Virus record (IMG/VR): IMGVR_UViG_3300032213_001531 | Span: 40,994-104,993 of that record | Length of the DNA stretch: 64,000 nt | Source of the DNA: a virus | Direction: 5' to 3' (one strand) | Shown here: positions 19,701 to 55,056 of the stretch, piece by piece | Layout of the letters: each line of letters starts with the position of its first letter | Numbering within the stretch: position 1 is the stretch's first letter | Notes under the pieces: model-generated | Seen by the model: the letters and a program-made list of their open reading frames with translations, nothing else | Told to the model about the DNA's origin: nothing | The model's database searches: none | Position numbers and translations under genes: made by a program

Positions 19701-21625
19701 GCTTCTCTGTAAGCATTAGTTAAGGCAACAAGGCTTGCTGACTCAAGGACATATGCGGAAGACAAAGATTTATGGGCTGTTGCAAGACTATTTGATACAG
19801 CAATATTTTCTAGCTCTTCATTGCTGAGGTACTGTGTTCCAAGGGCTGCATCTTTTGATCCATAAGCTAAACCTTGAAAACCTTTACGAATAAGATTAAA
19901 CATCTTCATTAAGTTAGCTAAACCGTTAGCAACAAGACCAACGGTCATAAGTAGAATTGGACCAATACCAGCAACTGCTGCTACAATAATTGCTACTGCT
20001 TTTTTAATTCCTTCAGGAGCATTGTTAAATTTATCAAACAGCTTAACAAAGAAATTAATAACTGGAGTCAATACCTTTGCAAACAATTCACCAATTGGAG
20101 CAATAGATGCTTTAAGTTTTTCAATTGCTGCTTGCATTTTATACATAGGAGATGATTCCTGTGTTTTTAATTCTCTCTCAGATAACAGCGCCAACTCTTC
20201 TGCAGATGCAGATGCCAATTTTAAAACTCTGCTTGCTTGGTTTCCTTCTTTTGTTACGTTATTTAAAAGTGCTGAGATTCTTGAAAACTGATACTTGCCA
20301 AAAACTTTTTCAATTGTTTGTGCTCTTTGTAGGTCTGTTAGTGGTTGTAATGCTTGAGCAAAAGAAACAACAGTATTTTTTAAGTTACCCTGATTGCTTT
20401 CAATAATTCCCTTAAGGTTAATGCCTAGCTTTGAAGTTGCTTCAGTTGCTGCTTTTGATGGATTAATTAAAGATGCAAGACCAGACTTAAGTGCGTTAGC
20501 TCCTTGCTCTGCACTAATACCACCTTCTTTCATTGCTGTAAGGAAGAATGCTAAATCTTTTACATCTCCGCCAAGCTGTTTAATAACTGGAGCAACTCTT
20601 GGAATGGCATTAGATAAATCTTCAAGGCTTAAAACAGTTTGGTTTTCAACAGAGTTAAGAAAGTCCATTGTTTTAGATAGTTCGCCACTACCAATAGCAA
20701 AAGCATTTTGTAATGCAATTGTTGTTTCTAAAGCTTTGTCTTGTGCAACTCCACCAAGGACTGCTAATTTGTTTGCTTGTCTTACTACCGTATCAAGTTG
20801 CTGCCCTGAGTTACCTGCTGCTGCTGCATCTGCAGCCATCTTGATTGTTTCAGAAACTTTAAGTCCATACTTTGTATACTCTTTAGCAATATCTTTCATG
20901 TTTTTAAGGGCTTTGTCAGTATCATCTTGTGTTGTAAAGATGTCTCCATAAACCTTTTTAAATCTAATTGCTTGAGTTTCAATTTCTTTAAATGCTTTTA
21001 TTGCTGATCCTGCGAACATAGCTAAAGGAATTGTAAAACCAACCATAAGCTGGCGACCAGCCCACTGTGTATTCTTACCAAAGTTTAGAAGTTTTGTAGC
21101 ACCATCGTCAAGCAGCTTATTCATTATCTGTTGACGTTGAATAGTCATTGACATTCTTGTTAATGCGTCGTTATAATTAAGTGCTTTTGGTGTAATTCGC
21201 ATTGAGCGGATTGCACCCTGTGCGTCTTTACCTAGTTGGACATACTGGCTTTGAAGAGCCTTAACTCTTTTTTCAGCAAGGTTGCTAATTGTTTGAAATT
21301 CTCTAGCGTAATTCTTTCCAAATGTTTTAGTGGAAGCCATGCCATATCGATAGTATTCACGAAGTGATAGCTTGCCAGCTTCCAGACGTTTTGAAAACTG
21401 ATCTGTAGAAGTTGCCATCTTGCCCATTGAGGCATTAAACATGCCTGTGGCATTAATGTTATGTAAAAGTGATTTTGAAAAATCGGCTTGAGCTAGTGAT
21501 GCAGCTTTTGTGCCGACGATCATGGAACGGTTAAGTGCAGATATCTGCTTGTCTAGCCCACGTAGTGCGGACATAGCTTGTGTTGTATCAATATTAATTA
21601 AAATATTGCTGTTTACATCTGTCAT
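10784..21625 (-). CDS. tail tape measure protein with inserted cargo domains
   Basis: 3613 aa; TP901-type tape-measure region near N-terminus, hydrophobic segments, long coiled coils; follows tail chaperones. Confidence 0.92.
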   Translation of the reverse strand: MTDVNSNILINIDTTQAMSALRGLDKQISALNRSMIVGTKAASLAQADFSKSLLHNINATGMFNASMGKMATSTDQFSKRLEAGKLSLREYYRYGMASTKTFGKNYAREFQTISNLAEKRVKALQSQYVQLGKDAQGAIRSMRITPKALNYNDALTRMSMTIQRQQIMNKLLDDGATKLLNFGKNTQWAGRQLMVGFTIPLAMFAGSAIKAFKEIETQAIRFKKVYGDIFTTQDDTDKALKNMKDIAKEYTKYGLKVSETIKMAADAAAAGNSGQQLDTVVRQANKLAVLGGVAQDKALETTIALQNAFAIGSGELSKTMDFLNSVENQTVLSLEDLSNAIPRVAPVIKQLGGDVKDLAFFLTAMKEGGISAEQGANALKSGLASLINPSKAATEATSKLGINLKGIIESNQGNLKNTVVSFAQALQPLTDLQRAQTIEKVFGKYQFSRISALLNNVTKEGNQASRVLKLASASAEELALLSERELKTQESSPMYKMQAAIEKLKASIAPIGELFAKVLTPVINFFVKLFDKFNNAPEGIKKAVAIIVAAVAGIGPILLMTVGLVANGLANLMKMFNLIRKGFQGLAYGSKDAALGTQYLSNEELENIAVSNSLATAHKSLSSAYVLESASLVALTNAYREAKVAMSSFASTNPGMFMPSRGRVTPPRRFAKGVTSVPGTGNKDTTPALLTPGEAVIPADMAKKYAPFIGQMIDGTLPGHILGRMPLFLGMPKSIKAVNIQRKARLSMESIGKGTEASRFANMDPTDFGVQLEATTGHSFPVKGIGGLYQKPDGTKVFVKPYVDETAALAEERMATITNKAFPLKAPEHTIRTMIDPTDPQKKRKIIVSEAPYNPEFAKPTGKFSEDEYFAQLLASGVRGDKDLQMANVSGRNMVDAGNAGVFDTASGFRTYSKGMPSVEDQVRINLLGVKGSNAKRFFAEATSNIPKGMTAEEYHTRMIREIDETLPRLKATIAGFKLNKEEQGIYQDMVRRLEDSRGANWRELHGIHSSVIANPKKALTPAAIKKIEDEITLRARQKGHASSLSDKDFMEGFSKWAQGNGFAKGGVVPGYMAGRLGMYGAASAVKVSGAKEAATVASLESRTRLPLTPLPPGTSFKISSLGSGMSQIQIGGQSMTVKASEAAKFEGRWKEFEAAYPDKTIYAQKVKALEARILKYKESGKPLDIGTASGKGLFANVNPWSGSRTRATPPEVNSRWQKVLADPSKNKPAQKLLNYYAEELASVKKNLVNTGKISEADALAVLKAPDFQTAIERVRSGEGGIAASHIKATGKNRDLEFWPADNVVRDQTVINSGMNALSKRMGAIHVTTEKEALIALSKLESKRHQYKGWGAKNKADTWTTTDIITEHLLRKRIHDGYYKNQKFKDSDYMPADTLALAKGIFSVPGPKGAGDIQPAMLSPGEAVIPAKAAAKYSSLVSGMINGTIPEHGSGRGGKGGVPRPLPGYTMVDKGDGWGATPVANTPPPSKGADVLGKATAQVSKFGTAVVTGTKAVANNARVQSASAKAMDRVRKIDARLSSMGGPAGPGGPSGPKPHGGYWTGYGKVATHDQDGNALNKEQRINARQDQRMKSSQTMMGVGMAAMMIPMLAQGIAQGSPDSTAGKFASNHMTAIMGASMLPMILPLLNSPLKKLIATVVALGVSFKMQSMAIRKSIADGVKQGQSIGNTIESLEGFGSILGTMSATQIMDKKREANRLEITPIDQTFGKDFSGSEFGKQFIAEFNTYAKSNGRGAAKQLGTKLASAVSQGVLSADQAESIIVNLARDMGDQSLEIEARGILREIIGPDGKNLKDNPIGVQLKILKNQKQLTTQMQNIFSDVVEKEMGGWFANLMQNVPGAGAVGLRTGINKREGFELAGSTVGGALLGARIASQLDKTGVIAGARSLPAAATFAKESQIAGTLGKARFGAGVIRGAAALGTGASATGAGVLPGAIILATTLAADLALRKYQQGREKKAVGAVAGAVAGNSIQSLAQVQQSMDLLQMQTDAQIEKLTKEKEAVKTAEKRLEIEKKIKDLNDQNLQDQQELRNQGVDVVDRATGFLDNISGKDAKVKYAEAYKTAFDDKYKDAVGPEKLAATELSALLNPDSKLIPKEAGISSEERKELKKQLAESEKRVAEIQARRDSYDSNSGEFTAAQAEYIAEMQNQVRIIQGLKAKTTQDVTKIGVMVQASVVAGDISAGSAKALIENFIATGKNVETTWKLMLGGQGAKEMDSLGWILQNLSDQENINTVVNVAGTFNGKEGPQQAREFYSMLEDFIQFPPEFRIDLNIESDPDDIPVLKKLGKEIDALRKHFPGGKLTKPALIAYQAELKLKGKSPNEALDAAVKNWDLLSSYDPTLQLEASVTLNQLLISDNIQQELNAELINAFKKKGLWKDIPLPLANSAALIQAQIDQLSKANPGIAKSTLDKLLKERLDSIYGPKTADLKKLAAQEAADTLKGAYSFLEDLGMKLKLFRDSAFNALTPLKSIMAIFENSKGAEGGLSRMFAKFKGLQQIMLEGGVSSGLMDAISGMSAEEFEAFKNSDVNPSKKDKQKPFKLDDKGNVIGITEDLLGLSEAFNSVVVGMAQFGAAQSIDNIKKQREAFEILRGAGMSVTDALKVIEDQSLASAIAAGTLGAAGSDEMKKFIKDIAEANSAMEKMQVITDTLTKNAEFDVFAKTPEVVGAMKSMGYSVEQIDAVLGNPAMLKQFTQNIKDGKIDIAAIEGSTGAISEFLKDIEAKKLIDIQINFNKGDYAQVASSGLDMVNQMFAVQEDLIKTGVDSRSTKDVAQLSANETKIKELQSQLRPYEAQIEQLQYKINDIQAAVSLNISQKIDDYQKEINDLQHQIDVQFNEPIQALQDQSSALSHDLDLINHAAEEINKRYDQQAESLTTVKEINDAILSQQEKQISLADALTSGDISAAGKAMQDMRKASADLYSNAAQKSFELARKNELDRLVATQGLTQDQIKEKQYQISQDIYALETDPRKIAIQDSIKSKTKTIYELEQLRENNLKQIRTYENEIAKITKDSVVDRERMIAALNTENETIQARLDKLVEETTVLGKNKDAWAAIEAKVKAYDLSKKDLDTAFAALLAASTAINAQWESIMTKIGAYAATPAKDSKIMTTAQTIVTNSGSTANVAKSEADAKAASDKITADAKAAADKIIADAKAAAEKSKAEADALVAAALKIKAEAVTAAEKAAAEKALAEAQAAADADTAAANAALKIAEDAANAAIAAAAAAVAMAQAAQDAADAIDAQATAALDAALAAADAALNNNANTKPVGYDEGVAAVNNAKQVYADMSDRFGDYMNKGRLAELQTAQDAITKAENNLKLIESGMSISNSIAENLNALIEQNAALLAKNSDRLAKANALLAKAIASKNSTSGNTSTASPSSTTSSSTTSSSSSTTSSSSSTTSSSSSTTSSTTSNANDPATMLTFSEPLIGSPNQTSYTVWGNDYKNGDVYTDTGVGALIYRRKTDSWEPFTGNKDGINYKDGQPTPFNFSTGFAAKSSGGLIPQFFASGGYAMGTDTVPAMLTPGEFVMSKYAVNTHGADKMKAINNGDSVGDAVYNYSISVNVKSDANPDEIARSVMAQIKQIDSQKIRGSRF
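11343..11436. repeat. 21-bp tandem repeat (GATGTTGTTGAAGAAGATGAA) x3 plus partial copies, encoding a Ser/Thr linker in the tape measure
   Basis: Seen directly. Confidence 0.9.
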
Positions 21626-37277: not shown

Positions 37278-37946
37278 TTAGCCATACTTGCTACTATGAA
37301 TATGACACATTTCAATTTCATTTATATTTACGTGACTTGGTAATGAGCCTACCCAATAAATTGCTTCTGCTAAATCCTCAGCAGTTAATGCTTGATCCCT
37401 TTTTTCTTCTTGGGTATCAATAGTTGCTGGACAAATTTCTGTAATCTTAATTCCAAACTGAGGAAACTCAAGTCTCATTGTGTCAATTAGGCCACGTTCA
37501 CCTCTCTTGGCATTTGTATAATTTCCTCCACCACGGTAAGGGACTTTACCACCAAAAGATGTAATAAAAATAATTGTTGGCGATTCTGATCTTTCCATAC
37601 AAGGAGCAAATAGTTGAGATAGGTACATTGGACCAGTGACATTTATGTCATAGGCTTTTCTAAAGTTTTCTGGTGTTTCATTAATAATAAAGGTTGGTCC
37701 AGATCCTCCGCCAGCATTATTTACTAAAAGGTCTAAAGTAATATCTTGATACTTATCAAAGAATTTTTCTATGGCTTGAGAATCTGTAACATCTAATTGA
37801 TAGACTTCAACATTATCAGAGACTAGTTTTGAAACTTTAGATAGGTTTCTTGAAACAGCAATAACCTTATAGCCGTTTTCAGACAGACGTTTAACTGTTG
37901 CTAAACCTACACCTTTGCTTGCTCCAGTTACAATTGCTGTTTTCAA
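37278..37946 (-). CDS. short-chain dehydrogenase/reductase (YdfG-like)
   Basis: TGASKGVG, NNAG, YTNAK catalytic motif. Confidence 0.9.
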   Translation of the reverse strand: MKTAIVTGASKGVGLATVKRLSENGYKVIAVSRNLSKVSKLVSDNVEVYQLDVTDSQAIEKFFDKYQDITLDLLVNNAGGGSGPTFIINETPENFRKAYDINVTGPMYLSQLFAPCMERSESPTIIFITSFGGKVPYRGGGNYTNAKRGERGLIDTMRLEFPQFGIKITEICPATIDTQEEKRDQALTAEDLAEAIYWVGSLPSHVNINEIEMCHIHSSKYG

Positions 37947-38678
37947 TTACATACTCTGGCTTTGATTAAGCTCCATATTATTATGGATCCAATGTCCAGG
38001 AATCATATACTTTACACCAGACTTAACTGTGTGTGCCGTGTGAAAATATGGAGCGTATGCTGGAAATATTACAACACTATTTTCTTTAGGCTTTACACCA
38101 AAACTAATAGCTTTATTTGCAACTGCAAGATCATAGTCTAACTCTACTGCTGGTGCGCCACTTACCCAACCTTCTGAGCTAGTCCATCCACCATCATAGT
38201 CCTTTAACTGAAAAGATATTTCTCCGCCTTCGCAGTCATCATTTAGATACATAACCAAAGAATATCTCAATGTTTTGTCGCCATCTAACTGATCAAAGTG
38301 TGCTCCCATAGCCATTCCAGTATTGTACTTTTTTATGTTAAATGTTGGGAAAAGCCTTGGTTCATCAAAGTCTCCCATAGAGGATGCATAGTCTTTACAA
38401 ACATTATACATCGTAGTCATAACGGCATCATAGATATATTTGCTTTTTTCTGCTACGTCTCCACTAAGATTGTTTATTGCATTAGCATCAAAAGTTTTTG
38501 TTTCTCCGTAGATAAAAGTTTTATCATTAGAAGATGTCCAAGGGTTCCAAACATTTACCCCTAACTCATCATACTGCTCAAGAGTGTCTAGCTCTTTCCA
38601 AACTTGTTTGAATTTATCAAAATTTTCAATTGCGTCAGTATAGTAATATACTTTTGGATCTAGTAGTTCTTTATTCAT
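37947..38678 (-). CDS. 2OG-Fe(II) oxygenase (prolyl 4-hydroxylase-like)
   Basis: HFD...YLNDDCEGGE...FH...K. Confidence 0.9.
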   Translation of the reverse strand: MNKELLDPKVYYYTDAIENFDKFKQVWKELDTLEQYDELGVNVWNPWTSSNDKTFIYGETKTFDANAINNLSGDVAEKSKYIYDAVMTTMYNVCKDYASSMGDFDEPRLFPTFNIKKYNTGMAMGAHFDQLDGDKTLRYSLVMYLNDDCEGGEISFQLKDYDGGWTSSEGWVSGAPAVELDYDLAVANKAISFGVKPKENSVVIFPAYAPYFHTAHTVKSGVKYMIPGHWIHNNMELNQSQSM

Positions 38679-38690
38679 TTGTTTCTCCCT

Positions 38691-39350
38691 TTAGTATCTA
38701 TTCTTTTCATAAAATCCTTTTTCTTTAATAAATCCAACCAAAACATATCTAATTGGTCCTGGACCTACATGTTTTACTCCATGATTATATTCTGCTGTGC
38801 CTGGAAAAATAAGCATTGATCCAGGATCAGGTTTAAACTCTAAACCATTGTTTGGAAAAAACAACTCTCCATCAACATAATCATTATTTAAATACAGAAT
38901 AGCAGCGTACCTAATTGATGGGTCTGTATCTTGATCTGTGTGAGCTTTTAACTCGACACCCTCTTGCATCCTTTGAATAGTTGCAAAACCACTTAACTCT
39001 ATGGTATCGTCAACATTTTGAACTAAATCATTTAGTCTATTAAAAAAATCTTTTTGAAATGAATGATTGCTAATGTTTAAATTTTTATCTTGCCAATTTT
39101 GAGTTATTTCAAATTTACCTTCAGCAACTAAATTATCAACATCATCTCTGCCAAATTTTTGCATACAAAAGTTTTTTAGGTTACCATGATACTCTACAAA
39201 CCACTCTTCATTGGGCGTTGTATTAATAATATCAAAAACTTTATCTAAATCTTCTTTAGAGAAAAAATCTTTTACCAACAAGACATCGTCAGTAATTTCT
39301 TCAATTTGAAAACTATTTTCCTCTAAAATGTTTTTTAAGAAGTTAGACAT
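38691..39350 (-). CDS. 2OG-Fe(II) oxygenase (P4H-like)
   Basis: HTD...YLNNDYVDGE...HGV...R. Confidence 0.9.
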   Translation of the reverse strand: MSNFLKNILEENSFQIEEITDDVLLVKDFFSKEDLDKVFDIINTTPNEEWFVEYHGNLKNFCMQKFGRDDVDNLVAEGKFEITQNWQDKNLNISNHSFQKDFFNRLNDLVQNVDDTIELSGFATIQRMQEGVELKAHTDQDTDPSIRYAAILYLNNDYVDGELFFPNNGLEFKPDPGSMLIFPGTAEYNHGVKHVGPGPIRYVLVGFIKEKGFYEKNRY

Positions 39351-40101
39351 TATTTCCTAAATCCTCAACTTTGTACTTGTTTCCATCAGCATCTAGCTTC
39401 CAACCTTCTTTTAAAAGATCTTGCCATTCAGCTCTTTCAATTTCTTGTTTAGCTCTAGTCTCTTTCATCTCTGCAGCCCAGGCATCTCTTAGCTCTTGTG
39501 GATAAGCATCTTCTTCTCTATCATCCCAGAAAGATCCTATAGTGTATCTTACTCCACTTTCTATTAATGATACTTCGTGCATATTGCTAAATCCCCCGTC
39601 AAAAACAGCAAGCATTCCAACTTCTGGTTTAATCTCTATGTTATGACTTGGAAACTTAAGCAGTCCCCCCTCAAAGTCATCGTTTAGATATAGGAACCCT
39701 GCATAACGACTTCTTGTAAAGGCTCCAGAATTTCCTTCAGCATCTGTGTTATCTGAATGAATTCTTGCGTATGCTCCTGGCTCCCATTTTTGAGTATGGT
39801 ATCCAATTTTAGAAATTGTTTTTGGATCAAGGTCATGTACTGAAGCAATTGCCTCTGGCATTGTTTTTTCAATGTCTGAAAAAATAGTTGGAGATAGTCC
39901 AGCGTCAAGCAATTCTTTATCGTTGTCTTGTGGCAGTACTGAAGAATATGACTCATAAAAAGAAATAGGCATCCAAGAAAGTGCACCATTATCTGCCTGA
40001 GCATCTAATGCTTGAATCATTTTTTTGCAATCTTCTTTACTTATAAAGTTCTTATAAATAACTATATCTTTTGTTAGTCTAACTTTATCGTTTAGGTTCA
40101 T
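39343..40101 (-). CDS. 2OG-Fe(II) oxygenase (P4H-like)
   Basis: HSD...YLNDDFEGG...HEV...R. Confidence 0.9.
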   Translation of the reverse strand: MNLNDKVRLTKDIVIYKNFISKEDCKKMIQALDAQADNGALSWMPISFYESYSSVLPQDNDKELLDAGLSPTIFSDIEKTMPEAIASVHDLDPKTISKIGYHTQKWEPGAYARIHSDNTDAEGNSGAFTRSRYAGFLYLNDDFEGGLLKFPSHNIEIKPEVGMLAVFDGGFSNMHEVSLIESGVRYTIGSFWDDREEDAYPQELRDAWAAEMKETRAKQEIERAEWQDLLKEGWKLDADGNKYKVEDLGNNV

Positions 40102-40985
40102 TGTATTCTTACTCCATTTTCTATTACAGCTCTTTGCGGATGCTTTAGTCTAAACTGCTCGTCTAAATCTTTTTGCATTTCCGCCCAAACATCTTTTCCA
40201 AACTCTTTTTCTTTTTCATACCAATCATCAGTTCCTTTTTGATATTTTTGCCAATACATTCTTGACAAGAACTTATTATTTTTATATGATGGCATAACTC
40301 CATGTAAATATGGTTTTCCTTCTTCTGTCAGATAGTCTGGGTGTCCTGATGGAAAAACTAAAACATCTCCTGCTTCTGGTTTATACTTTACAAGCTTATC
40401 TCCCATTGCAAAATCAATCTCGCCACCCTCGTAGTTATCATTAAAATATATTGTAGATGTTATTACAAACTTATATCCTGGAGTATGACCTTGCTCTCTT
40501 ATATAGTCTGAATGATAGTTCATTCCAACCGTACTATATTCATTGCTTACATGGTATTTGCCTATTGTTCCGCCAGCCCATCTCCAAGTTGGAATAGGAT
40601 TGCCATCATCGTCTATAGACATTGCATCTAAATCTACGTCTAAATTATGACTCTTGATATAGTCTTCTGTAGCTAAATAAAAATTGTCCATCATTTCAAT
40701 TACAAAGTTTTTATGATTTTCTTGCGTTTCTGTTGATGTTTCTACATCTTTCATATTTCCATATCTATCATTCATAGAGAATTGAGGAGTTATTGGATTT
40801 AAGTATTCTCCAAAAACAGACCAAGTGGTCCAAGGATTAAACAAACCGTCTTCTGTTTCCGATAAAGAATCTGTTAAAATTTTATAAGATTTTTCAATAT
40901 CTTTAAAAAGATTTTTGTACACAACAATATTTGGATATATTTCTATTGACTCAAGTTTATTATTGTTTGGCCAAGGATATGTCAT
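40098..40985 (-). CDS. 2OG-Fe(II) oxygenase (P4H-like)
   Basis: HSD...YFNDNYEGGE...HGV...K. Confidence 0.9.
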   Translation of the reverse strand: MTYPWPNNNKLESIEIYPNIVVYKNLFKDIEKSYKILTDSLSETEDGLFNPWTTWSVFGEYLNPITPQFSMNDRYGNMKDVETSTETQENHKNFVIEMMDNFYLATEDYIKSHNLDVDLDAMSIDDDGNPIPTWRWAGGTIGKYHVSNEYSTVGMNYHSDYIREQGHTPGYKFVITSTIYFNDNYEGGEIDFAMGDKLVKYKPEAGDVLVFPSGHPDYLTEEGKPYLHGVMPSYKNNKFLSRMYWQKYQKGTDDWYEKEKEFGKDVWAEMQKDLDEQFRLKHPQRAVIENGVRIQ

Positions 40986-41665
40986 TATGGTTGCCTATCT
41001 CCTGTATGCTTTGTAATTTCCCAGAAAAATGGGCATGTAAATCTTAGGCCACTTTTGATTTCAGTAACTCCATGAATATAGTTTTTATCTCCTGGGAAGA
41101 AGTATGCAGCTCCTTTTTTAGGCTTAAACTGCACACCTTGTAAAGGGAAGTATAGCTCTCCACCCTCATAGTCATCATTTAAATAAAACAAACTTGAAAG
41201 ATCATAGTTTGGAAAATCATTAGGGGTTCCAGCATCAGGTCCCTCGTGCAATTCTTTATCAGCATGAGGCTTTTGAAATTGTCCAGGAAGCCATTTAACA
41301 ATAGTTGTTCCAGTTGGATGAACCTCTACTTTGTAAAAATCTTCAACTATTGGCTTTAGTCTTTGAAACAAACCAGCAATAACTGGTGCAATTGTAGGGT
41401 CATTTTTATCTAAACTTGGAGTTGTTGCAACTCTATCTTTCCAATAGTCAGAATCGTAAGTAACAGTTCCATTTTCATTCATGTGGCTTTCGGTTACATC
41501 CCAAATTGTCAAAGATTTGGCAGCTTTTTCTAAAAACTCAATTTCTTCTTGAGTCATAAAATTTTCTAGCTCAACAATCATGTCTTTGCTATCTCCAAAC
41601 CAACCAGATGGAGTTATAGATGGTGTTCTTTTAACTACTGTGTACGACTCGTTATTTTGTTCCAT
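40985..41665 (-). CDS. 2OG-Fe(II) oxygenase (P4H-like)
   Basis: HAD...YLNDDYEGGE...HGV...R. Confidence 0.9.
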   Translation of the reverse strand: MEQNNESYTVVKRTPSITPSGWFGDSKDMIVELENFMTQEEIEFLEKAAKSLTIWDVTESHMNENGTVTYDSDYWKDRVATTPSLDKNDPTIAPVIAGLFQRLKPIVEDFYKVEVHPTGTTIVKWLPGQFQKPHADKELHEGPDAGTPNDFPNYDLSSLFYLNDDYEGGELYFPLQGVQFKPKKGAAYFFPGDKNYIHGVTEIKSGLRFTCPFFWEITKHTGDRQP

Positions 41666-41683
41666 GTTTTATTATACCATTTC

Positions 41684-42409
41684 CTATTCGTAGAATCTCT
41701 TAGTCCAGACTTCTTTTTGATAAACTCCGCCATCTGGGACACGATATTTTTTACTATTTTCTATATTATGATTCATCATTTCAGAAGCAGTTGGAACAGT
41801 TATTTCGGATTTCCAATCTTCCCTCAAAAATGGAAGCAACTGAGCATAAGGAGTTCCTGCTGGAAGAACTCCAGTCCAACCTTTTTGTACAAAAAATGGA
41901 AAAGATCCAGGCAAATTAACTTTGTCATTATCAATAATTCCAGAAACTGTCATAATTGGAAGATCGTATCTATTAAATGGGGCAACATATAAAACGCTAT
42001 AGCCATCTGGAACCTTTACTGCCCAATCTGGCATCCAAGCAAAATGATAATTATAGTATCCTTCTGGATGACGAAATTGTGGCATAGGAGTTCTTCTTGT
42101 AGCAAAATCTTTATACATTGGATCTTCAATTTTAACATCAATTTGCCCTGCGCCGTCAAGGAAAAATTCTATGTCACAGGGGGTTACAAGGCTATACCCC
42201 GTTGTCAAAATATCAAGAATTGCAGGACAGGCTTTCCATGTAGGGATCTTTCCCTTGTCTGGCCCTATCCAATATTCTCCATCTGGTTTTTTAGCAAATC
42301 TATCAGCTTCTTTATACCACTGTGGCATTGATCTTGAAATTGGTATTGGCTTTGATTTACTATCTTTACTTAGCCAAGGCCTATTAGTTATAAACTCAAT
42401 AATTTTCAT
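41684..42409 (-). CDS. conserved phage protein, DUF6065-related/dUTPase-like beta fold (putative)
   Basis: PQWYK, CPAILD..GY, SGIIDND, GTPYAQLLP. Confidence 0.55.
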   Translation of the reverse strand: MKIIEFITNRPWLSKDSKSKPIPISRSMPQWYKEADRFAKKPDGEYWIGPDKGKIPTWKACPAILDILTTGYSLVTPCDIEFFLDGAGQIDVKIEDPMYKDFATRRTPMPQFRHPEGYYNYHFAWMPDWAVKVPDGYSVLYVAPFNRYDLPIMTVSGIIDNDKVNLPGSFPFFVQKGWTGVLPAGTPYAQLLPFLREDWKSEITVPTASEMMNHNIENSKKYRVPDGGVYQKEVWTKRFYE

Positions 42410-43122
42410 TGTTCACTCTTTGTATTATCAATAACACTTAGCTTTAAATTTTTAACTTCATGAGATCCGACAGATTCGCCTTTTTCATTTACTGCATTTC
42501 TATACCAGTCTGTCCATTCACCTAATTTATTTATTTCTTGAGCAGCAGCTCCATAAGCGTTTACAGAATCACTATATTCTTGAGTATGAATAAAGTCAAC
42601 TATTTCAATTGACTCATCTTTTAAAGAAGTTAAAGATATAGGAATTATTGTTGCTACTGGAGTTCCTGCCTTAATGACAACTTCTTGATTAGGTATTCTG
42701 CATTTAATTGCTAATGGAAAATCAGTATTTAAAAATGAAGTTGAGATTAAAGAAGACATTACCTCAAAGTTTTCATTAAAATAATTTTGAGGAGTAATTG
42801 TCAATACGCTTATATCTTGAGCAGTTCTCAAAATAAAACCAGTATTAAAACTAATTGTAGATTGACCTCTACCAGTATAGACATATTCTTTACCTTCTAA
42901 AATTGTTACATTATCACCACTTGTATCATTTACACCATTCCAAATAAATTTTAAATCTATTGGCAAAGAAATGCTCCAGCCTATAACATTAGCAGAAGTT
43001 ACTGGATGACACCTATAGGCATGACCTTGAGGAGTTTCATCCATCCAATCTCTTTTAATTGACATTGGCTCTATATTTAATGCCATTGGTGTTTTTTTAT
43101 AAGCAGTGATAATTGACATCAT
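42406..43122 (-). CDS. DUF6065-like protein
   Basis: RDWMD...AYRCHPVTSANVIGW...GTPVATIIP; family name from recall. Confidence 0.6.
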   Translation of the reverse strand: MMSIITAYKKTPMALNIEPMSIKRDWMDETPQGHAYRCHPVTSANVIGWSISLPIDLKFIWNGVNDTSGDNVTILEGKEYVYTGRGQSTISFNTGFILRTAQDISVLTITPQNYFNENFEVMSSLISTSFLNTDFPLAIKCRIPNQEVVIKAGTPVATIIPISLTSLKDESIEIVDFIHTQEYSDSVNAYGAAAQEINKLGEWTDWYRNAVNEKGESVGSHEVKNLKLSVIDNTKSEQ

Positions 43123-43790
43123 GACCCAGTCTCTTGATACATCTCTGGAGTATGATACTTATCGCTATAGTCAAGCATTGTTACCAAAGAATACTTTGTT
43201 CCAGAGTGAACAACTTTAGCTTGATGTGGATACATAAAATTAGATGGGAACAATACAACATCTCCAGCTTTTGGAACATATGTAATTCCCTGAAGTCTAA
43301 AGAATAACTCTCCACCTTCAAAATTATCATTAATATAAGCAACTAAAGATAGTGTACAGTTATATGAAAATCCATGATCATGATGTTCCATAAAGTGTTG
43401 ACCAGGCTCATACTTAATATAATTAAAAGCTTCCCAGTATCTTAGGTTATTAATATTAAAGCGTCTGCAGTAATCTTCTACTGCTAACTTTTGTCTATCA
43501 TAACAGTCTTGCCAAATGCCCTGAAGTTTTAAGGAGTCTGGAGATACGTCTCTTTCAATGTCTGTTTTCTTAAATTTAAAATCAACGCAGTCTCTATACT
43601 CTGGCATTCTTTGTTGATAACCAACATAAGCTGGTTGCCAATTATAGTTTGGTCTGTCATTATTTAAAACCTCTTCCAACCTATCAATGATGTTTAATTC
43701 TGTTGGTAAAACGTCGTGGTAAACAAAAATTCCTGGAGCAATCTCTTCATAGCTACTCCAAGGTGCTGATGTTGTATTTTCTGTATTCAT
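43119..43790 (-). CDS. 2OG-Fe(II) oxygenase (P4H-like)
   Basis: HHDHG...YINDNFEGGE...PH...K. Confidence 0.9.
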   Translation of the reverse strand: MNTENTTSAPWSSYEEIAPGIFVYHDVLPTELNIIDRLEEVLNNDRPNYNWQPAYVGYQQRMPEYRDCVDFKFKKTDIERDVSPDSLKLQGIWQDCYDRQKLAVEDYCRRFNINNLRYWEAFNYIKYEPGQHFMEHHDHGFSYNCTLSLVAYINDNFEGGELFFRLQGITYVPKAGDVVLFPSNFMYPHQAKVVHSGTKYSLVTMLDYSDKYHTPEMYQETGS

Positions 43791-43803
43791 ATTTTCTCCT
43801 ATT

Positions 43804-44523
43804 TTAATTTCCTGTGTGACCTAAAAGATTAATGTCTGTCATAATGACAACACAGTATTTTGTTCCTGTTTTCATTGGCAAAGAAGCATGCTCATATATA
43901 TAGTTTGAAGGAAATATTGCTATATCTCCAACCTTTGGGGTATGAACAAAATTATCTAATCTTGGAAATTTAATTTCTCCACCTTCGTAATCATCATTAA
44001 TATAGATTACCGCAGAAACAGTACAATTATAAGCTGGACCATGATCGGCATGTATATTAAAATGAGTTCCTTCACCTTCATACTTTACAAAGTTAAATGC
44101 TTCATAATATGTAACATTTATCCCCCAGTAGTGTGCATAATCATCTATACACAATTTTAGTTTTTGATATATCTCTTCATGCAAATCAATCAAATCAGCA
44201 TTATGTTCATCTCTTGGACCAAGATTTTCTTGCTTATATTTAAAGTCTACAGCATCTCTTGCTTTTTTGATTGGAACAGTAGAGTTTGTTACCTGTGCTT
44301 CAGACCACTTATATTTATTATCCCCTGAAAGATTGTGCTCAAGAGTATTGATATATCTATCTGAATCATCTTTTGAAAAAACATTATGATAAATATTTAA
44401 ACCTAATCCTGGATTGCTAATCGAGATATTACTTTGAGGCATTAATCTTGAAATTCTTGTTGAGGCTGTTTCTGATCTATCTTTAGTAAACCAGTGATTA
44501 TCGTTTTCATCATATACTTGCAT
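43804..44523 (-). CDS. 2OG-Fe(II) oxygenase (P4H-like)
   Basis: Start MQVYDEN after AGGA; HADHG...YINDDYEGGE...EH...K; close paralog of 43119..43790. Confidence 0.9.
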   Translation of the reverse strand: MQVYDENDNHWFTKDRSETASTRISRLMPQSNISISNPGLGLNIYHNVFSKDDSDRYINTLEHNLSGDNKYKWSEAQVTNSTVPIKKARDAVDFKYKQENLGPRDEHNADLIDLHEEIYQKLKLCIDDYAHYWGINVTYYEAFNFVKYEGEGTHFNIHADHGPAYNCTVSAVIYINDDYEGGEIKFPRLDNFVHTPKVGDIAIFPSNYIYEHASLPMKTGTKYCVVIMTDINLLGHTGN

Positions 44524-44596
44524 GTGATTCCTATCTTTTAATGGTATGGTTTTATTATAGCATAAAAGTACTATTTGAAGCAAGATATAGCGAGTG

Positions 44597-44863
44597 TTAC
44601 CACTTATTGATAGGGCAAGTAGCGTGAGCCATTGTTGTTTTTATTTTCATAAAGCAGCCACATTTTTTACATTGAGATGTTAGTTTAATTAGTTCTGGAC
44701 AAGATTTGCATATATCAAATCTTTCTTTTGCAACTGATTCTTCAACATATTCAGTTTTTGGGTTTAATAAATCCCAAGGCTTTGCTGCTCTGTGTTTTTC
44801 TATATTTTCAACCATTTCTTTGTTGGCTTCTTTATAGACTTCCCAAGGTGTTTTTTCTGACAT
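44597..44863 (-). CDS. small Cys-rich metal-binding protein (DUF6171-like)
   Basis: RFDICKSCP...CKKCGCFM...ATCPINKW. Confidence 0.75.
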   Translation of the reverse strand: MSEKTPWEVYKEANKEMVENIEKHRAAKPWDLLNPKTEYVEESVAKERFDICKSCPELIKLTSQCKKCGCFMKIKTTMAHATCPINKW

Positions 44864-44882: not shown

Positions 44883-45227
44883 TTAGTTATTATTAAATCC
44901 GTTAACAGCATCATATTTCCAACCAACTTGAACAACTTCTGGTTCTGAAATTACTGCTATTACGGGATTACTCATAAGCATTGTATAAAGGCCCTCGTCA
45001 GAGGCTACTGGCATATATGTATTTTCATCAACTGAAATTGTAAAATAATACATATGTGGATATTGATTATTTGTCAAAGCTCTTTTTTCTTCTGTTTGAT
45101 CTATAATGGTGTGTTCTTGTAAAAGAACATTAGCCATTGCTTCTGGCACAGTCATAATTTTTTCAACTACACCGTCTAAAATAAAACCTACAGCGGTTGG
45201 ACCAACCACAGTTTTTCCAGTAATCAT
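44883..45227 (-). CDS. hypothetical protein, possible fibre/adhesin assembly factor
   Basis: C-terminal VGWKYD..GF motif; directly after adhesin-like gene. Confidence 0.55.
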   Translation of the reverse strand: MITGKTVVGPTAVGFILDGVVEKIMTVPEAMANVLLQEHTIIDQTEEKRALTNNQYPHMYYFTISVDENTYMPVASDEGLYTMLMSNPVIAVISEPEVVQVGWKYDAVNGFNNN

Positions 45228-45284: not shown

Positions 45285-46283
45285 TTAGCAACCGCCACCA
45301 TCAAAGCATCCTGGGCTTGAGCAAGCTCCACCGCAACAGAACACTGTACAGAAGTTTGGTGAGCAACAGCTAGGAGAACATGATCCTCCGAAGCCATTAC
45401 ATGCTTGTGCAAAGTAAGGTGGGAAGAATGGGAATGAAGGTGGGAAGAATGGAGGGAAGAATGGTGGGAAGAACGGGAAGAACGGGAAGTAAGGGAAATA
45501 TGGTGGGAAGAACGGTGGGAAGAACGGTGGGAAGAAAGGTGGGAAGAACGGGAAGAATGGAGGGAAGAACGGTGGGAAGAATGGAGGGAAGAAAGGTGGG
45601 AAGAACGGGAAGAACGGGAAGAATGGTGGGAAAAATGGCGGGAAGAACGGGAAGAATGGTGGAAAGAATGGGGGAAAGAATGGAGACAAAGTAGTAATAG
45701 ATCCAGATGCAGGAGAAGCAGCGCTTGTACCATTAGCATTAGTTGCTGTAACTGTATAGGTTTGTGAAGTTCCAGCAGTATCTGCAATAACAATTGGAGA
45801 AGTAGCACCTGTTCCAGAAGTACCGTCAGATCCTGTTACAGTATAACCACTGATTGTCTTTCCACCAGTTGATGGGGCTGAAAAAGCAATTGAGTTTTGA
45901 TTTACGCCAGCTGTTGGAGTTGGAGCAGACATGGTTGCAGGAACTGTTGTTGCGGTAATAGAATCTGAAGCAGTTGAGGCTGCTGAAGTTCCAGCAGCAT
46001 TGCTTGCTGTTACAGTAAATGTATATGCAGTAGCAGACTGAAGTCCAGCTACAGTAATTGGAGAAGATGAACCAGTTCCAGTAAATCCTCCAGGACTAGA
46101 TGTTACAGTATAAGAAGTTGCTGCTGGAGATAGCGCAGGTAAAGAAAAAGATACTGTTGCAGCACCATTATTAAAGGCTCTTCCAGTTCCAACATCTGTT
46201 GCTGTTGCTCCTGTTGGTGCCAATGGCTCTAAAAAGTCATTTGATGCTTGTGACTTCTTACCTATTCTCTTACCTGATGCCAT
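45285..46283 (-). CDS. adhesin-like protein: two FN3 domains, (Pro/Phe) tract, 10-Cys C-terminal domain
   Basis: GLQSATAYTFTVTASNAAG and YTVTATNANG FN3 motifs; about 91-aa tract almost entirely P/F; CNGFGGSC...CFDGGGC end; GGAG RBS. Confidence 0.85.
   Translation of the reverse strand: MASGKRIGKKSQASNDFLEPLAPTGATATDVGTGRAFNNGAATVSFSLPALSPAATSYTVTSSPGGFTGTGSSSPITVAGLQSATAYTFTVTASNAAGTSAASTASDSITATTVPATMSAPTPTAGVNQNSIAFSAPSTGGKTISGYTVTGSDGTSGTGATSPIVIADTAGTSQTYTVTATNANGTSAASPASGSITTLSPFFPPFFPPFFPFFPPFFPPFFPFFPFFPPFFPPFFPPFFPPFFPFFPPFFPPFFPPFFPPYFPYFPFFPFFPPFFPPFFPPSFPFFPPYFAQACNGFGGSCSPSCCSPNFCTVFCCGGACSSPGCFDGGGC
45411..45683. repeat. degenerate 9/12-bp coding tandem repeat (PFF/PPFF)
   Basis: GGGAAGAA(C/T)GG(T/A) units. 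Confidence 0.95.
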
Positions 46284-46316: not shown

Positions 46317-48701
46317 TTACGCTGTCAAGTCGCCAAAGACAACCCATGTATTTGCTGCTCTCTTAAAGAGAGTTGCAGATGACCATTGAGTTCTTAGCTT
46401 TAATCCTGGGGTTGAGTTAACTGTTACTCCAGTGTCTCCAGCAATTGTTACTTGTCCTGCTCCAGTTTGAAGAATATCAATAGATGTTCCTACTGGATAT
46501 GCTACTGCTGTATTTGTAGGGATTGTAATTGTTGTAGCTGTTGCTTTTGAAACTTCAATTAGTGAATCTCTTTCAGTTAATGCTGATAGTGTATAAGAAT
46601 CTGTTTTTTGAACAATTGGTGTCCGTGAAGGAACGCCTTCCTTTGTTTGTGTACCGTCTGTAAATGCTACACCTGAAGCAGAGGCTGTAATTAATCCTGA
46701 TGCTGTAAGTGCTGCTACGTTACTTGTACCAGTGAATGTTGGTGATGCAAGTGGAGCAAATCCTGAAATGCTTGCACCTGCAGGAATTGTTACTGTTCCA
46801 GTAAATGTAGGTGAAGCAATTGGGGCTTTTAGTCCAATTGAGGTTGTTAGTGTTGTAGATAAGTTTGCATCATTTCCAAGAGCGGTTGCAATTTCTCCAA
46901 GAGTGTCTAAAGTTGAAGTTGCGCTATTGACAAGTGCTGATATTTCTCCACGAACATAGGCAGTTGTTGCAACTTGTGTAGTGTTAGTTGTTGCTGCAGC
47001 CGTTGGTGCAGTAGGAGTGCCTGTAAGTGCTGGTGAAGCAAGAGGAGCAAATCCTGAAATTGATGCTCCTGCTGGAATTGTTACTGTTCCTGTGAATGTT
47101 GGAGATGCAAGTGGTGCTTTTGCAGTAAGGGCTGTATCAAGACCTGAAATTTTTGATGTTGCAATTGCTGCTGAAGAAGAAATATCTCCATCAACAATTG
47201 TTCCATCAAGAATCATTGTGCTTGTTACAGTGCCAGAAGGCAATGTTACAGTGCCTGTAAAGGTAGGTGAAGCTAATGGTGCTTTAGCATCTAATTGAGT
47301 CTGAATAGATGATGTAACTCCATCTAGATATCCAATTTCAACATCTGAAACATTGGCAACAGTTGCTTGCTTACCATTTAATTGTGTTTGGATAGATGAA
47401 GTAACTCCATCAACGTATCCTAATTCTGTTGAAGAAACAGTTGATGAAACTGCAAGCTTTGTCCAGTCAATTGCTGCTGCTGAATTTATATCGCTATTAA
47501 CAATTGTTCCAGCAACAATTTTTGCTGATGTAACTGAATCATCTCCAAGTTTAGCAGTAGTTACTGCACCGTCTGCAATCTTTCCAGTTGTTACTGATAA
47601 TCCACCAATTTCATTAGTTCCAACTGAATCATCTGACATCATTGATTGAGTAATTGTGTTTGCAGGTAGTGTTACTGTGCCTGTAAATGTTGGTGAGGCT
47701 AAAGGAGCTTTTGCATCAATTTGAGTTTGAATAGCTGAGGTAACTCCATCAAGGTATCCTAATTCAGTTGCTGAAAGGCCTACAATAACATCTTGCTTAT
47801 TATTTAGCTGTGTTTGAATAGCTGAGGTAACTCCATCAACATAGTTTAGTTCAACTGTAGATAAGGTTGCTCCATCAAGGATATTTAGCTCTGTAGCTGT
47901 TGCTGTAAGTGCTACTGCTTCATTAACAAGTGGGGAATTTACAGTTGCGGAAGTTAAAGTTTTATTAGTTAATGTTTCTGTTCCTGCAATTGTTGCTAAA
48001 TCAGCATCAGAAACTGCGGTATTAAACTGTGCAATTGTTCCACTTACTGTATTTGCATTTAAGTTAATAGTTTTATTTGATAATGTCTGGGTGCCGTCAG
48101 CAAGTACTACGGTACCTGTAGCATCTGGAAGTGTAATAGTTCTGTCTGCTGTTGGGTCTACAACAGTAAGGCTTGTTTCAAATGCGTTTGCTGTTAAACC
48201 TTCAAATTTAATTTCATTTTGAACATTAAGGATTGTACTATCAATAATAGTTGTTGTTCCTGATACTGTTAAGTCTCCTGATACTGTTACATTTCCGCTA
48301 CCGTCAGCAAGAAGAACTGTTCCTGTAGCATTAGGAATAGTAATAGTGCGATCAGCTGTTGGGTCTGTTACCTGTAAAGTTGTTTCAAATTCATTTGCTG
48401 TAGCGCCTTCAAAAACAACGCCAGTCTTTGTTAATACATTAAATGTAGCATCGAGTTCTGCAACTCCAGATGCTGCGCCTTTCTCTGTAAGAAGAATATA
48501 GTCGTCAAGAGATCCACCAAGGTCTTCAAGGTTTTTAAAATATGAAAGGTCGATCCAGTGACTAATTCCGTCACCAATTTTGAATTGACCAGTATCGCTT
48601 TCAAAACCAATTTCGCCAGCAGCGAGGATTGGACCATCTCCATTATTTAAAGAAATCCATTGCGCTGCAGTTCCTCTGCGCTGTTGCATTCTTGTTGCCA
48701 T
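46317..48701 (-). CDS. tail fibre protein (Mtd-N-like N-terminus)
   Basis: RRGTAAQW...GEIGFESDTGQFKIGDG; internal repeats APLASPTFTGTVT and GYxDGVTSxIQTQL; C-terminal WVVFGDLTA domain. Confidence 0.85.
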   Translation of the reverse strand: MATRMQQRRGTAAQWISLNNGDGPILAAGEIGFESDTGQFKIGDGISHWIDLSYFKNLEDLGGSLDDYILLTEKGAASGVAELDATFNVLTKTGVVFEGATANEFETTLQVTDPTADRTITIPNATGTVLLADGSGNVTVSGDLTVSGTTTIIDSTILNVQNEIKFEGLTANAFETSLTVVDPTADRTITLPDATGTVVLADGTQTLSNKTINLNANTVSGTIAQFNTAVSDADLATIAGTETLTNKTLTSATVNSPLVNEAVALTATATELNILDGATLSTVELNYVDGVTSAIQTQLNNKQDVIVGLSATELGYLDGVTSAIQTQIDAKAPLASPTFTGTVTLPANTITQSMMSDDSVGTNEIGGLSVTTGKIADGAVTTAKLGDDSVTSAKIVAGTIVNSDINSAAAIDWTKLAVSSTVSSTELGYVDGVTSSIQTQLNGKQATVANVSDVEIGYLDGVTSSIQTQLDAKAPLASPTFTGTVTLPSGTVTSTMILDGTIVDGDISSSAAIATSKISGLDTALTAKAPLASPTFTGTVTIPAGASISGFAPLASPALTGTPTAPTAAATTNTTQVATTAYVRGEISALVNSATSTLDTLGEIATALGNDANLSTTLTTSIGLKAPIASPTFTGTVTIPAGASISGFAPLASPTFTGTSNVAALTASGLITASASGVAFTDGTQTKEGVPSRTPIVQKTDSYTLSALTERDSLIEVSKATATTITIPTNTAVAYPVGTSIDILQTGAGQVTIAGDTGVTVNSTPGLKLRTQWSSATLFKRAANTWVVFGDLTA

Positions 48702-52755: not shown

Positions 52756-53304
52756 ATGAACATAACACAAGATAAACAAAAACTCATCGGAATACTCACG
52801 ATTATAGTAATGGCAGCGCAGGGTTTAAATGTTGCTAATGCTAGTGAACGCAATAACTTAAGTACGGAAATTGTAGTGTCCGCAGATTCAGCCTCGCAAG
52901 AGGCTTTAAGTGTTTCTAAGGATAAAAAATTAAAAAAGTTTGAAAATAAGGGTTTTCTAACCGATGATGAACTCAAGGAACTTTTATACCTCGTTGGCTT
53001 TAGAGGCAACGATTTAAAGGAGGCTTGGGCAGTAGCCAAAAAAGAGTCTAATGGACAACCAATCAGATTTAATGGAAACACTAAGACTGGCGACAGCTCT
53101 TATGGAATGTTTCAAATTAATATGATTGGCGAACTGGGTCCTGATCGTCGAGATAAATTTAATCTTGATGCCAATTCAGATCTTTTAAATCCCGTTGTAA
53201 ATGCACAAATAGCATTTCATATGTCAGACGGTGGAAAAGATTGGTCTGCTTGGCATGGCATAACAGCTAAAACAAAAATGTGGATGAGTCGTTTTCCTAA
53301 TTAA
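52756..53304 (+). CDS. secreted/membrane-anchored lytic transglycosylase (SLT/lysozyme-like)
   Basis: N-terminal hydrophobic segment; AVAKKES catalytic Glu, SYGMFQIN, DWSAW. Confidence 0.85.
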   Translation: MNITQDKQKLIGILTIIVMAAQGLNVANASERNNLSTEIVVSADSASQEALSVSKDKKLKKFENKGFLTDDELKELLYLVGFRGNDLKEAWAVAKKESNGQPIRFNGNTKTGDSSYGMFQINMIGELGPDRRDKFNLDANSDLLNPVVNAQIAFHMSDGGKDWSAWHGITAKTKMWMSRFPN

Positions 53305-53360: not shown

Positions 53361-54422
53361 TTAACAGCTTCCTCCATCAAAACAACCAGGGTCTGAACAA
53401 CCAGAGCCACAACAGAATGTGGTACAGAATAATCCAGCACAACAATTTCCACAAGGTCCTCCAAACTCAGTACATGCTGCTGGAGCAAAATAAGGTGGGA
53501 AGAACGGTGCTGGTGCAAAGTAAGGAGGGAAGAACGGTGGGAAGAACGGTGCTGGTGCAAAGTAAGGTGGGAAGAACGGAGGGAAGAACGGTGCTGGTGC
53601 AAAGTAAGGAGGGAAGAATGGAGGGAAGAATGGTGACGGTCCACCTGGAGAACATGAAGGTCCAGTTGTGCCATAAATTAATGAATCTAAACATTCTCCA
53701 ATGTATGAACAGTATCCATTTCCAAGGTCACTTGAAGTACATTCCTTATAAAGCACTGTTGCAAAGTAAGGTGGGAAGAACGGTGGGAAGAACGGTGCTG
53801 GACCAAAGAACGGTGGGAAGAATGGAGGGAAGAATGGTGCTACTGCGTAGTTATGTGTAAATGTTATTGTTTGACTTGCTGCTCCAGGATTAACCGTAAT
53901 TGTGACGGTATAAGACTGAGCATTAACCATATTAACTAAATCGCCAGGCCAGGAAGCAGTATATGCTCCGTAGTTGTATAGTGATGGATAATTTGTAGCG
54001 CCATTGGTGGATGTATATAGATAATTAGCTATATTTGATCCAGTCCAAGAAAGAGTTCCAGTCGTTGTGCTATTAGCTGTATATGTAAGGTTTGAAATTG
54101 TTGCACTTGGCGTTGGAGTAAAGTAAGGTGGGAAGAATGGTGGGAAGAATGGTGGGAAGAATGGGAAGAATGGTGGTGCTACATAATTATAATAAACAAA
54201 ACTTACAGAAGATTGATAGTCAGCAAGTGTTCCTGATGTTGGTGTTTGAGACGCTACTTTATTTGATAAACCTGAATCCCCAGTATTTGTTGTAGAACTT
54301 GAAGAATAAGTTAAACCACTATTTGCAATTGCTGTTTGTGCTGCTGTATTTAATAGACCGATTAAGTTTGGTACTGCTACCATTCCTTTGGATGCTGCCC
54401 AACGGCCTATAAAACCCAGCAT
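53361..54422 (-). CDS. adhesin-like protein: PASTA domain, three Pro/Phe tracts, Ig/FN3-like domain, 4-Cys and 10-Cys domains
   Basis: VAVPNLIGL...KVASQTPTSG PASTA motif; (PFFP)n and APAPFFPPFFPPYF repeats; CTEFGGPC...CFDGGSC end. Confidence 0.85.
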   Translation of the reverse strand: MLGFIGRWAASKGMVAVPNLIGLLNTAAQTAIANSGLTYSSSSTTNTGDSGLSNKVASQTPTSGTLADYQSSVSFVYYNYVAPPFFPFFPPFFPPFFPPYFTPTPSATISNLTYTANSTTTGTLSWTGSNIANYLYTSTNGATNYPSLYNYGAYTASWPGDLVNMVNAQSYTVTITVNPGAASQTITFTHNYAVAPFFPPFFPPFFGPAPFFPPFFPPYFATVLYKECTSSDLGNGYCSYIGECLDSLIYGTTGPSCSPGGPSPFFPPFFPPYFAPAPFFPPFFPPYFAPAPFFPPFFPPYFAPAPFFPPYFAPAACTEFGGPCGNCCAGLFCTTFCCGSGCSDPGCFDGGSC

Positions 54423-54429
54423 ATGAAAC

Positions 54430-55056
54430 CTACGCTGTCAAATCGCCAATAAGAACCCAGGCATTGGTGTCTGTTTTAAAAATTGTACAACCTGAGTATC
54501 TTGCAGCAATTTTCTTATTTGAATTTTTGCTATAAATTGTAACAGCTACTGAAACTGGAGCTATTTCTGTTTGACCTGCGCCAATTTGAACAATGTCAAA
54601 TCTAGAACCTATTGGAAATGCAACACTAGCATTTGTTGGAATAGTGACTGTATTAGCAGTTCCAACATCCATTGTTACAGTTTTTCCAGCATCTGTTAAA
54701 GCAGCAGTATAACTTGCTGTTTTAGGTAGTAGTGTTGTAGCATCATTTAGTGATCTCCAAGCATTATCATAATATTGAAGCTCATTAATTTCATTACCGT
54801 TAGAGTTTTGACGAACAAAACAAACAATTCCATTTGTTGGAGATGGAAGTGCTGCGTCACGAGCAGCGGTATTTAAAAAGTTATTGACTCCTGCTTTAGC
54901 AGTTAAAACTTCAGTAAAACTAACGGCTGAACCAAAACTATGAGTTCCAGTCCAAGCGTAGTTTGCTCCAGTTGATGTTGTTCCCGCTACTGGATGCCAA
55001 GTAGATGTTGAATTTTGATAAACATATGCCACTTTTCCATTAGAACTAATTGTCAT
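54430..55056 (-). CDS. short tail fibre protein with WVLIGDLTA C-terminal domain
   Basis: C-domain homologous to that of 46317..48701. Confidence 0.75.
   Translation of the reverse strand: MTISSNGKVAYVYQNSTSTWHPVAGTTSTGANYAWTGTHSFGSAVSFTEVLTAKAGVNNFLNTAARDAALPSPTNGIVCFVRQNSNGNEINELQYYDNAWRSLNDATTLLPKTASYTAALTDAGKTVTMDVGTANTVTIPTNASVAFPIGSRFDIVQIGAGQTEIAPVSVAVTIYSKNSNKKIAARYSGCTIFKTDTNAWVLIGDLTA

Follow-up and report, generated by a model that had tools for sequence, protein, structure and literature searches.

The window analyzed here is a stretch of 64,000 nucleotides (positions 40,994 to 104,993) of the IMG/VR virus record IMGVR_UViG_3300032213_001531, a genome of 104,993 bp that is ~97% complete, has a G+C content of 36.5% and encodes a portal, a protease, a capsid, a 3613-aa ORF, tail and fiber proteins and a ribonucleotide reductase. 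Portal and capsid have their nearest counterparts in large Streptomyces siphophages (44-50% identity), and a WhiB-family gene (above the Pfam cut-off) and an 87-aa thioredoxin are encoded outside the window (G000:C1:16527-16700 and 19109-19351). The presence of the WhiB gene together with a Streptomyces-phage-like portal and capsid points to a host that is very probably an actinobacterium, and the low G+C content suggests that this host belongs to a low-GC aquatic lineage. Positions 10784-21625 of the window (minus strand) encode the 3613-aa ORF, which lacks any Cys, followed by a 1533-aa minor-tail-like protein; both proteins are unusually large for a 105-kb siphophage.

Two proteins encoded on the minus strand of the window end in a 10-Cys peptide, here called the tip. 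The type-A protein (P0001; 332 aa, 45285-46283, minus strand; Pfam fn3, 2e-8) consists of a conserved N-terminal peptide (..NDFLEP..), two FN3-like domains, a 92-residue Pro/Phe tract of PFF and PPFF units (45411-45686, minus strand) that joins the FN3 domains to the tip, and the tip itself (45288-45401, minus strand), which forms the last 38 residues ahead of the stop codon at 45285-45287. The N-terminal peptide is the best-conserved part of the protein, as expected of a putative docking end. The type-B protein (P0002; 353 aa, 53361-54422, minus strand), which has a full-length relative in locus L005, is built from a PASTA-like N-terminus (assigned by a match just under the Pfam cut-off), an Ig-like domain, an internal 4-Cys module (53652-53741, minus strand) and a tip that comprises the last 37 residues (53364-53474, minus strand), with Pro/Phe tracts between these elements. 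The internal module aligns with one that a different phage protein, P0065, carries as its terminal tip (E 4e-5), indicating that Cys modules are found as beads within proteins as well as at their ends; a further protein, P0003, has 22 Cys spread over several such modules. The 10-Cys peptides that a preliminary description of this DNA had picked out, with no strand given, are thus exact C1-to-C10 spans on the minus strand at the C-termini of two ORFs. A plus-strand reading of 45288-45401 and 53364-53474 was ruled out, as the translation is full of stops. Calling the two carriers adhesins, as was done in that description, is an interpretation rather than an observation.

Both carrier genes lie in a tail-fiber module. 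Directly upstream of the type-A gene is a 794-aa tail fiber protein (46317-48701, minus strand; PHROG tail-fiber families), and directly upstream of the type-B gene is a 208-aa protein (54430-55056, minus strand); these two neighbors have in common a C-terminal domain of ~100 aa (45% identity). Downstream of the type-A gene are a 114-aa Cys-free protein, p114 (44883-45227, minus strand), which is the partner gene of the tip and the sole copy of its family in the genome, a small 6-Cys DUF6171 protein (44597-44863, minus strand; Pfam 8e-8) that is often part of the cassette described below, and a cluster composed of an SDR gene, seven 2OG-Fe(II) oxygenases (PF13640) and two DUF6065-like genes (37278-44583, minus strand).

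The two tips have the same scaffold, C-C-CC-C-CC-C-C-C with Cys as the last residue, as had been described. The type-A spacing is C-6-C-3-CC-4-C-3-CC-3-C-4-C-5-C, and that of type B differs only in a second loop of 2 residues; the two tips are 63% identical. Since Cys accounts for only 0.38% of residues in the other proteins of the window, most structural proteins being Cys-free, ten Cys in 38 residues are far beyond chance (~3e-16 for at least ten at the window Cys frequency), and the tip occurs in just two copies in the whole 105-kb genome. The PGCFDGG motif is invariant in the four sequences compared, and in a 9-sequence alignment the type-A framework is common to eight other tips, with 7 of the 10 Cys invariant. 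The same framework with quite different loops was found in IMG/VR loci L132, L140 and L144. Modified versions are present in L204, in which C5 is lost and an extra Cys is gained beside C2, and in L154, an 8-Cys tip from which C6 and C8 are both lost. The claim of a conserved Cys framework with variable loops is upheld by the seven tip lineages that keep the framework. Conservation of the spacing holds among homologues of the tip and fails among orthologues of the whole protein, which carry unrelated Cys frameworks.

Searches with the tip returned little beyond its immediate relatives. At E-values up to 10, Pfam gave only keratin B2 (0.04) and a profile search of the PDB gave nothing, so that no described Cys-rich family (toxin, hevein, CBM, granulin or EGF) was recovered; the ESM Atlas gave no match to the tip, and the Atlas model matched nothing above a TM score of 0.38. 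A word-indexed sequence search with the tip alone and a search of GTDB genomes were both negative, and an exhaustive HMM search of 1.84 billion representatives gave no match, probably because a short profile of Cys alone is too weak. Direct searches of IMG/VR and JGI returned three close relatives only (L003, L004 and L005), and in a scan of IMG/VR for the spacing of Cys codons, TGC/TGT simple repeats dominate among the matches listed. No relative of the type-A or type-B protein was present among the cultured phages of the collection searched, and full-text searches of the literature returned no description of such Cys-rich fiber tips, their partners or the repeat motif. The inhibitor cystine knot (ICK) consensus has six Cys (CX3-7CX3-6CX0-5CX1-4CX4-13C). 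The first six Cys of the tip are separated by loops of 6, 3, 0, 4 and 3 residues, the last of which is one residue short of this consensus unless C7 is used, and the ten-Cys pattern is not known to be among the listed conotoxin frameworks. Knottins also have I-IV, II-V and III-VI disulfides that thread a ring, and a small triple-stranded beta-sheet. Because no family matched and the AlphaFold2 prediction of the tip (4-sequence alignment, pLDDT 48.5) was unusable, the knottin or conotoxin likeness noted earlier appears to be a resemblance of spacing only.

The carriers were collected with two queries. The first, the Pro/Phe tract plus the tip, found 82 proteins with FN3 or PASTA N-termini, F-P-P-[FYH] repeats in common and diverse C-ends. 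The second, an alignment of type-A proteins searched against IMG/VR, found 475 relatives, of which 79 loci were fetched; in the type-A loci that were kept, identity to P0001 over residues 1-206 is 50-94%. Directly behind the repeat tract, these orthologues carry a Cys module (2-12 Cys), a Hint domain or nothing. The Cys modules that occupy this slot have many unrelated spacings and fall into at least 12 different frameworks. Many orthologues are Hint-ended (PF14890; for example P0028, P0033, P0056, L163-L169, L182 and L189), with an intein-like domain of ~170 aa that has Cys or Ser as its first residue, starts with C[IV]xxDT and ends with ..FIAGGxLVHNK; since this domain follows directly on the tract, self-cleavage at the tract end is implied. 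The existence of tip-less orthologues indicates that the tip is dispensable for the role of the body.

The oxygenase cluster is kept downstream whatever the tip, including behind Hint-ended and tip-less orthologues, and is therefore not tip-specific. In some orthologues the aromatic tract is composed of FxFTP, FGFTP or FGA repeats without Pro-Pro (L168, L173, L174, L177, L181, L185 and L196). Within 9-10 kb downstream of loci with such non-PPxF tracts, no match to the 2OG-oxygenase cluster was found in 7 loci, with L178 and L183 as exceptions, and in the comparison across L126-L204 the cluster is present in almost all loci with PPxF tracts. This distribution supports a link of the oxygenases to the Pro-Pro tract rather than to the tip.

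Presence of a Cys tip is mirrored by the gene content immediately downstream. Between the stop codon of the type-A gene and the next conserved gene, loci in which the type-A protein ends in at least 4 Cys have one small ORF of 110-149 aa; at tip-less and 2-Cys variants there is no ORF in this slot and the gap measures 56-111 bp. Most of these ORFs cluster by BLAST, and a family profile recovers the remainder. A member of this partner family stands behind 22 of 22 distinct tips with at least 4 Cys and behind 0 of 15 tip-less, 2-Cys or Hint variants, a perfect association (Fisher p = 1e-10, uncorrected for shared descent). No partner-family gene was found behind the Hint-ended orthologues; four of these with Ser-type Hint domains (L126, L128, L135 and L136) have three extra ORFs of ~170, 190 and 197 aa in the partner-gene slot, none of which belongs to the family. 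For the internal 4-Cys module of type B there is no separate partner gene. Members of the p114 subfamily (28-38% identity) are confined to tips of the framework seen in the window, and the tree of partners groups by tip framework, requiring 10 label changes compared with at least 11 in 500 shuffles.

Comparison with related loci revealed that tip and partner are exchanged as a cassette with sharp boundaries. L129 combines a body 94% identical to that of the type-A protein with a tip of another kind, a 6-Cys module. At the DNA level, identity to this locus is 91.6% from the fiber gene through the last Pro/Phe codon; homology is lost exactly at the junction of tract and tip and is regained in the middle of the DUF6171 gene. 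In comparisons with phages that have related tips, the flanks are ~80% identical, but divergence prevents alignment of the tip and partner. Of the 22 loci with Cys tips, 14 have a DUF6171 gene behind the partner gene, compared with none of the 15 other variants (uncorrected for shared descent); the identity of this protein to the copy in the window tracks the tip class, reaching 79-82% behind the same framework. DUF6171 may be a third member of the cassette, perhaps a zinc-ribbon or redox helper. The window itself has two proteins with the same tip and one partner gene. Similarly, in L207 and L208 both Pro/Phe proteins are on one 6-Cys framework and a single partner lies downstream. The two tips of L206 differ more, and there a separate partner gene stands behind each carrier. 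Such a pattern fits a partner that would have to match its tip.

Clues to what p114 might do came from its predicted structure and its position. An AlphaFold2 model built from the family alignment has a pLDDT of 89.1. Foldseek with this model found nothing in the PDB and only uncharacterized phage proteins in BFVD; p114 falls in unnamed PHROGs families only, Pfam gave nothing credible, and the best PDB profile E-value was 0.11. In a VIA-align comparison of the model with 48,161 chains, the top match was to residues 1-57 of 7YPX chain a (Z 6.0, rmsd 2.8, 54 aligned) and the second to 5YVQ chain B (Z 3.6), Z values that lie below the level rated reliable. The first is identified as gp25 of cyanophage Pam3 because its 162-residue length matches gp25, and 5YVQ is a complex of the Mu tail fiber with its chaperone, so that both top matches are tail-fiber chaperones, a class that presumably has very few members in the library. 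Residues 1-55 of Pam3 gp25 form a fiber-binding beta-sandwich domain (PMC9608196). The nearest named ESM Atlas clusters are N-terminal domains of tail-fiber assembly (Tfa) proteins, with scores of 0.77-0.81 that are rated as leads only. An hhalign comparison of p114 with Mu Tfa (Mu U) gave a probability of 2% and no profile similarity. Tfa proteins are defined by a conserved helical trimerization domain at the C-terminus, which p114 lacks; its model has no terminal helical bundle. With its position directly downstream of the carrier gene and its co-variation with the tip, p114 appears Tfa-like in these two respects rather than an established member of the Tfa family.

Several features of the Cys modules favor disulfide bonds. 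The Cys number is even (2, 4, 6, 8, 10 or 12) in 36 of the 38 spacing patterns that the distinct tails provide (binomial p = 3e-9). Some of these patterns are related and hence not independent, yet the rule holds in all of ~20 unrelated frameworks. A bias toward even Cys numbers is, as Dutton and colleagues reportedly described in 2008, a signature of disulfide bonding in exported proteins. In addition, the joint loss of C6 and C8 in L154 suggests that these two residues may be bonded to each other, an indirect hint and the only one to the connectivity. The preliminary description had proposed a five-disulfide mini-domain; the even Cys counts and the kept framework bear out a small domain of disulfide type at the end of two fiber-module proteins, and from these we infer the bonding itself. 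No oxidase of the Erv1 or DsbA type was found in the genome, and oxidation would then come after release from the cell; the one thioredoxin is distant from the tip locus and is uninformative.

Taken together, these observations are best explained, at what we consider an even chance, by a disulfide-stabilized distal binding knob that is exchanged as a cassette with its cognate chaperone and binds the host envelope. The 10-Cys stretch would be a self-contained mini-domain of ~38 residues with five disulfides, placed at the far end of two accessory fiber or adhesin proteins of an actinobacterial siphophage in which a docking N-terminal end is followed by FN3 or PASTA/Ig domains, an aromatic Pro/Phe stalk and the Cys knob. 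In the reducing cytoplasm the tip would be handled by p114, a Cys-free chaperone resembling tail-fiber assembly proteins, and the disulfides would close upon release of the particle into oxic water. This would yield a small, stable knob whose variable loops could bind a structure of the host envelope, and tip and chaperone would be swapped between phages by recombination at the repetitive Pro/Phe DNA. One chaperone gene would serve both carriers in this genome, which would explain why both have the same tip. Several observations count against this explanation: the weak fold matches of p114, its missing helical Tfa domain and lack of profile similarity to Mu Tfa, the genome's want of an Erv1- or DsbA-type oxidase, the tip-less orthologues and the partnerless internal module of type B.

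It is improbable, by our estimate, that the Cys tip is instead a socket and that p114 remains on the fiber as the true co-varying adhesin or cap, in the way that gp38 sits on gp37 in T2-type phages. Such an arrangement would account for the co-variation of the tip with p114 and for their joint exchange, and it would suit the resemblance of p114 to fiber-binding chaperone domains, given that Mu Tfa stays on the virion (PMC9608196). Against this arrangement, the p114 homologues behind related tips have conserved cores (28-38% identity), and a single p114 goes with two tips that are only 63% identical.

A C-end that is hypervariable, next to a small downstream gene that co-varies with it, would also suit a polymorphic toxin with immunity: the tip could be a bacteriocin- or defensin-like peptide, carried on the protein or released from it, for which p114 would be the cognate immunity protein. 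Hint domains, which are frequent in polymorphic toxins, fill the same slot in orthologues, and a conserved Cys framework with variable loops is typical of peptide toxins. We nevertheless regard this explanation as unlikely, since the gene is within a tail-fiber module behind a fiber gene, neither a protease or exporter nor a conserved cleavage motif was evident at the junction, the Hint domain is terminal here and not ahead of a toxin, the fold and feature comparisons of p114 point foremost to fiber chaperones, and immunity would be of little use to a lytic phage. Just as unlikely, in our judgment, is a variant in which the tips are not adhesins and form an arsenal of knottin-like effectors (polymorphic Cys-knot toxins or receptor blockers) of at least 12 frameworks, each with a cognate protective p114-family protein; that such tips are displayed on or shed from virions and act on competing bacteria or grazers merits the same low degree of belief.

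A metal-thiolate cluster, in which the ten Cys would bind Zn, Cu or Fe, had been put forward as an alternative to disulfides and is highly unlikely in our estimation. The segment is 26% Cys and has CC pairs, the virion is assembled in a reducing cytoplasm and a small Zn-ribbon-like DUF6171 protein is encoded nearby, all of which would suit metal binding. However, no CxxC, CxC or His is conserved, and the tip has only CC pairs and four Phe, which does not agree with the features of metallothioneins, namely CxC or CxxC motifs, few aromatic residues and a Cys number set by cluster geometry. Cys4 metal sites are at odds with modules of 6 or 10 Cys, which are common, and both the even counts and the loss of Cys in pairs favor disulfides over metal sites. 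We give hardly any credence to the suggestion that the tip is a RiPP-like core peptide matured by the neighboring oxygenases and released: it is indeed a C-terminal Cys-rich peptide beside seven 2OG oxygenases, an SDR and DUF6065 genes, but this cluster is retained where the slot holds a Hint domain or nothing, similar Cys modules are also internal, between Pro/Phe tracts, the genome has no radical-SAM gene, the "leader", which is short in RiPP precursors, would span ~290 aa and contain folded FN3 domains, and the neighbors scanned included no family of the lanthipeptide, YcaO, protease or exporter/transporter type.

The disulfide-stabilized knob with its putative chaperone resembles several known systems in part. 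As in Mu S/U, lambda Stf/Tfa and Pam3 gp24/gp25, a variable C-terminal tip in a fiber module co-varies with, and is exchanged jointly with, a small downstream gene, and the best matches of the p114 model, weak as they are, are the fiber-binding domains of Pam3 gp25 and Mu Tfa. In contrast to these Tfa-type cassettes, in which the tip is a trimeric beta-structure, the tip here is a 20-50-residue Cys-rich module, the stalk is a Pro/Phe repeat and p114 is without the helical C-terminal Tfa domain. Inhibitor cystine knots and conotoxins are likewise short, with a conserved Cys framework that includes CC pairs, hypervariable loops and a C-terminal Cys, whereas the phage tip has ten Cys and no signal or pro-peptide and ends a 330-aa phage protein. 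In gp38 of T2/S16-type phages, too, a conserved scaffold bears hypervariable segments in a small distal element that the fiber module encodes; gp38, however, is a separate host-range protein built on polyglycine-II repeats, while the tip is part of the carrier chain and would be built on disulfides. Finally, hevein/CBM18, fungal CBM1 and the solanaceous lectins have a 30-45-residue module rich in Cys, Gly and aromatic residues that ends a proline-rich stalk, and in the solanaceous lectins this stalk is rich in hydroxyproline; prolyl-hydroxylase-like genes are next door to the phage carrier. The tip has no Pfam match to these families.

If this model is correct, the tips would be the smallest phage host-recognition modules known to us and a natural counterpart of engineered knottin display, in which interchangeable disulfide knots of 20-50 residues are presented on a conserved carrier. 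Two undescribed families, the Cys tips and the partner proteins, would be defined, and the question would arise of how a virion built in a reducing cytoplasm gains five correct disulfides. The cassettes would also provide a sequence handle on host-range switching in the abundant, mostly uncultured actinophages of aquatic habitats, and the tip-partner pairs, which are compact and testable, might be adapted as binder scaffolds.

A single gene on the plus strand is found in the fiber region of the window (52756-53304). It converges on the type-B gene, is conserved in L003, L005 and L206, and codes for a lysozyme-like protein (SLT_3) whose N-terminus is a signal or anchor segment.
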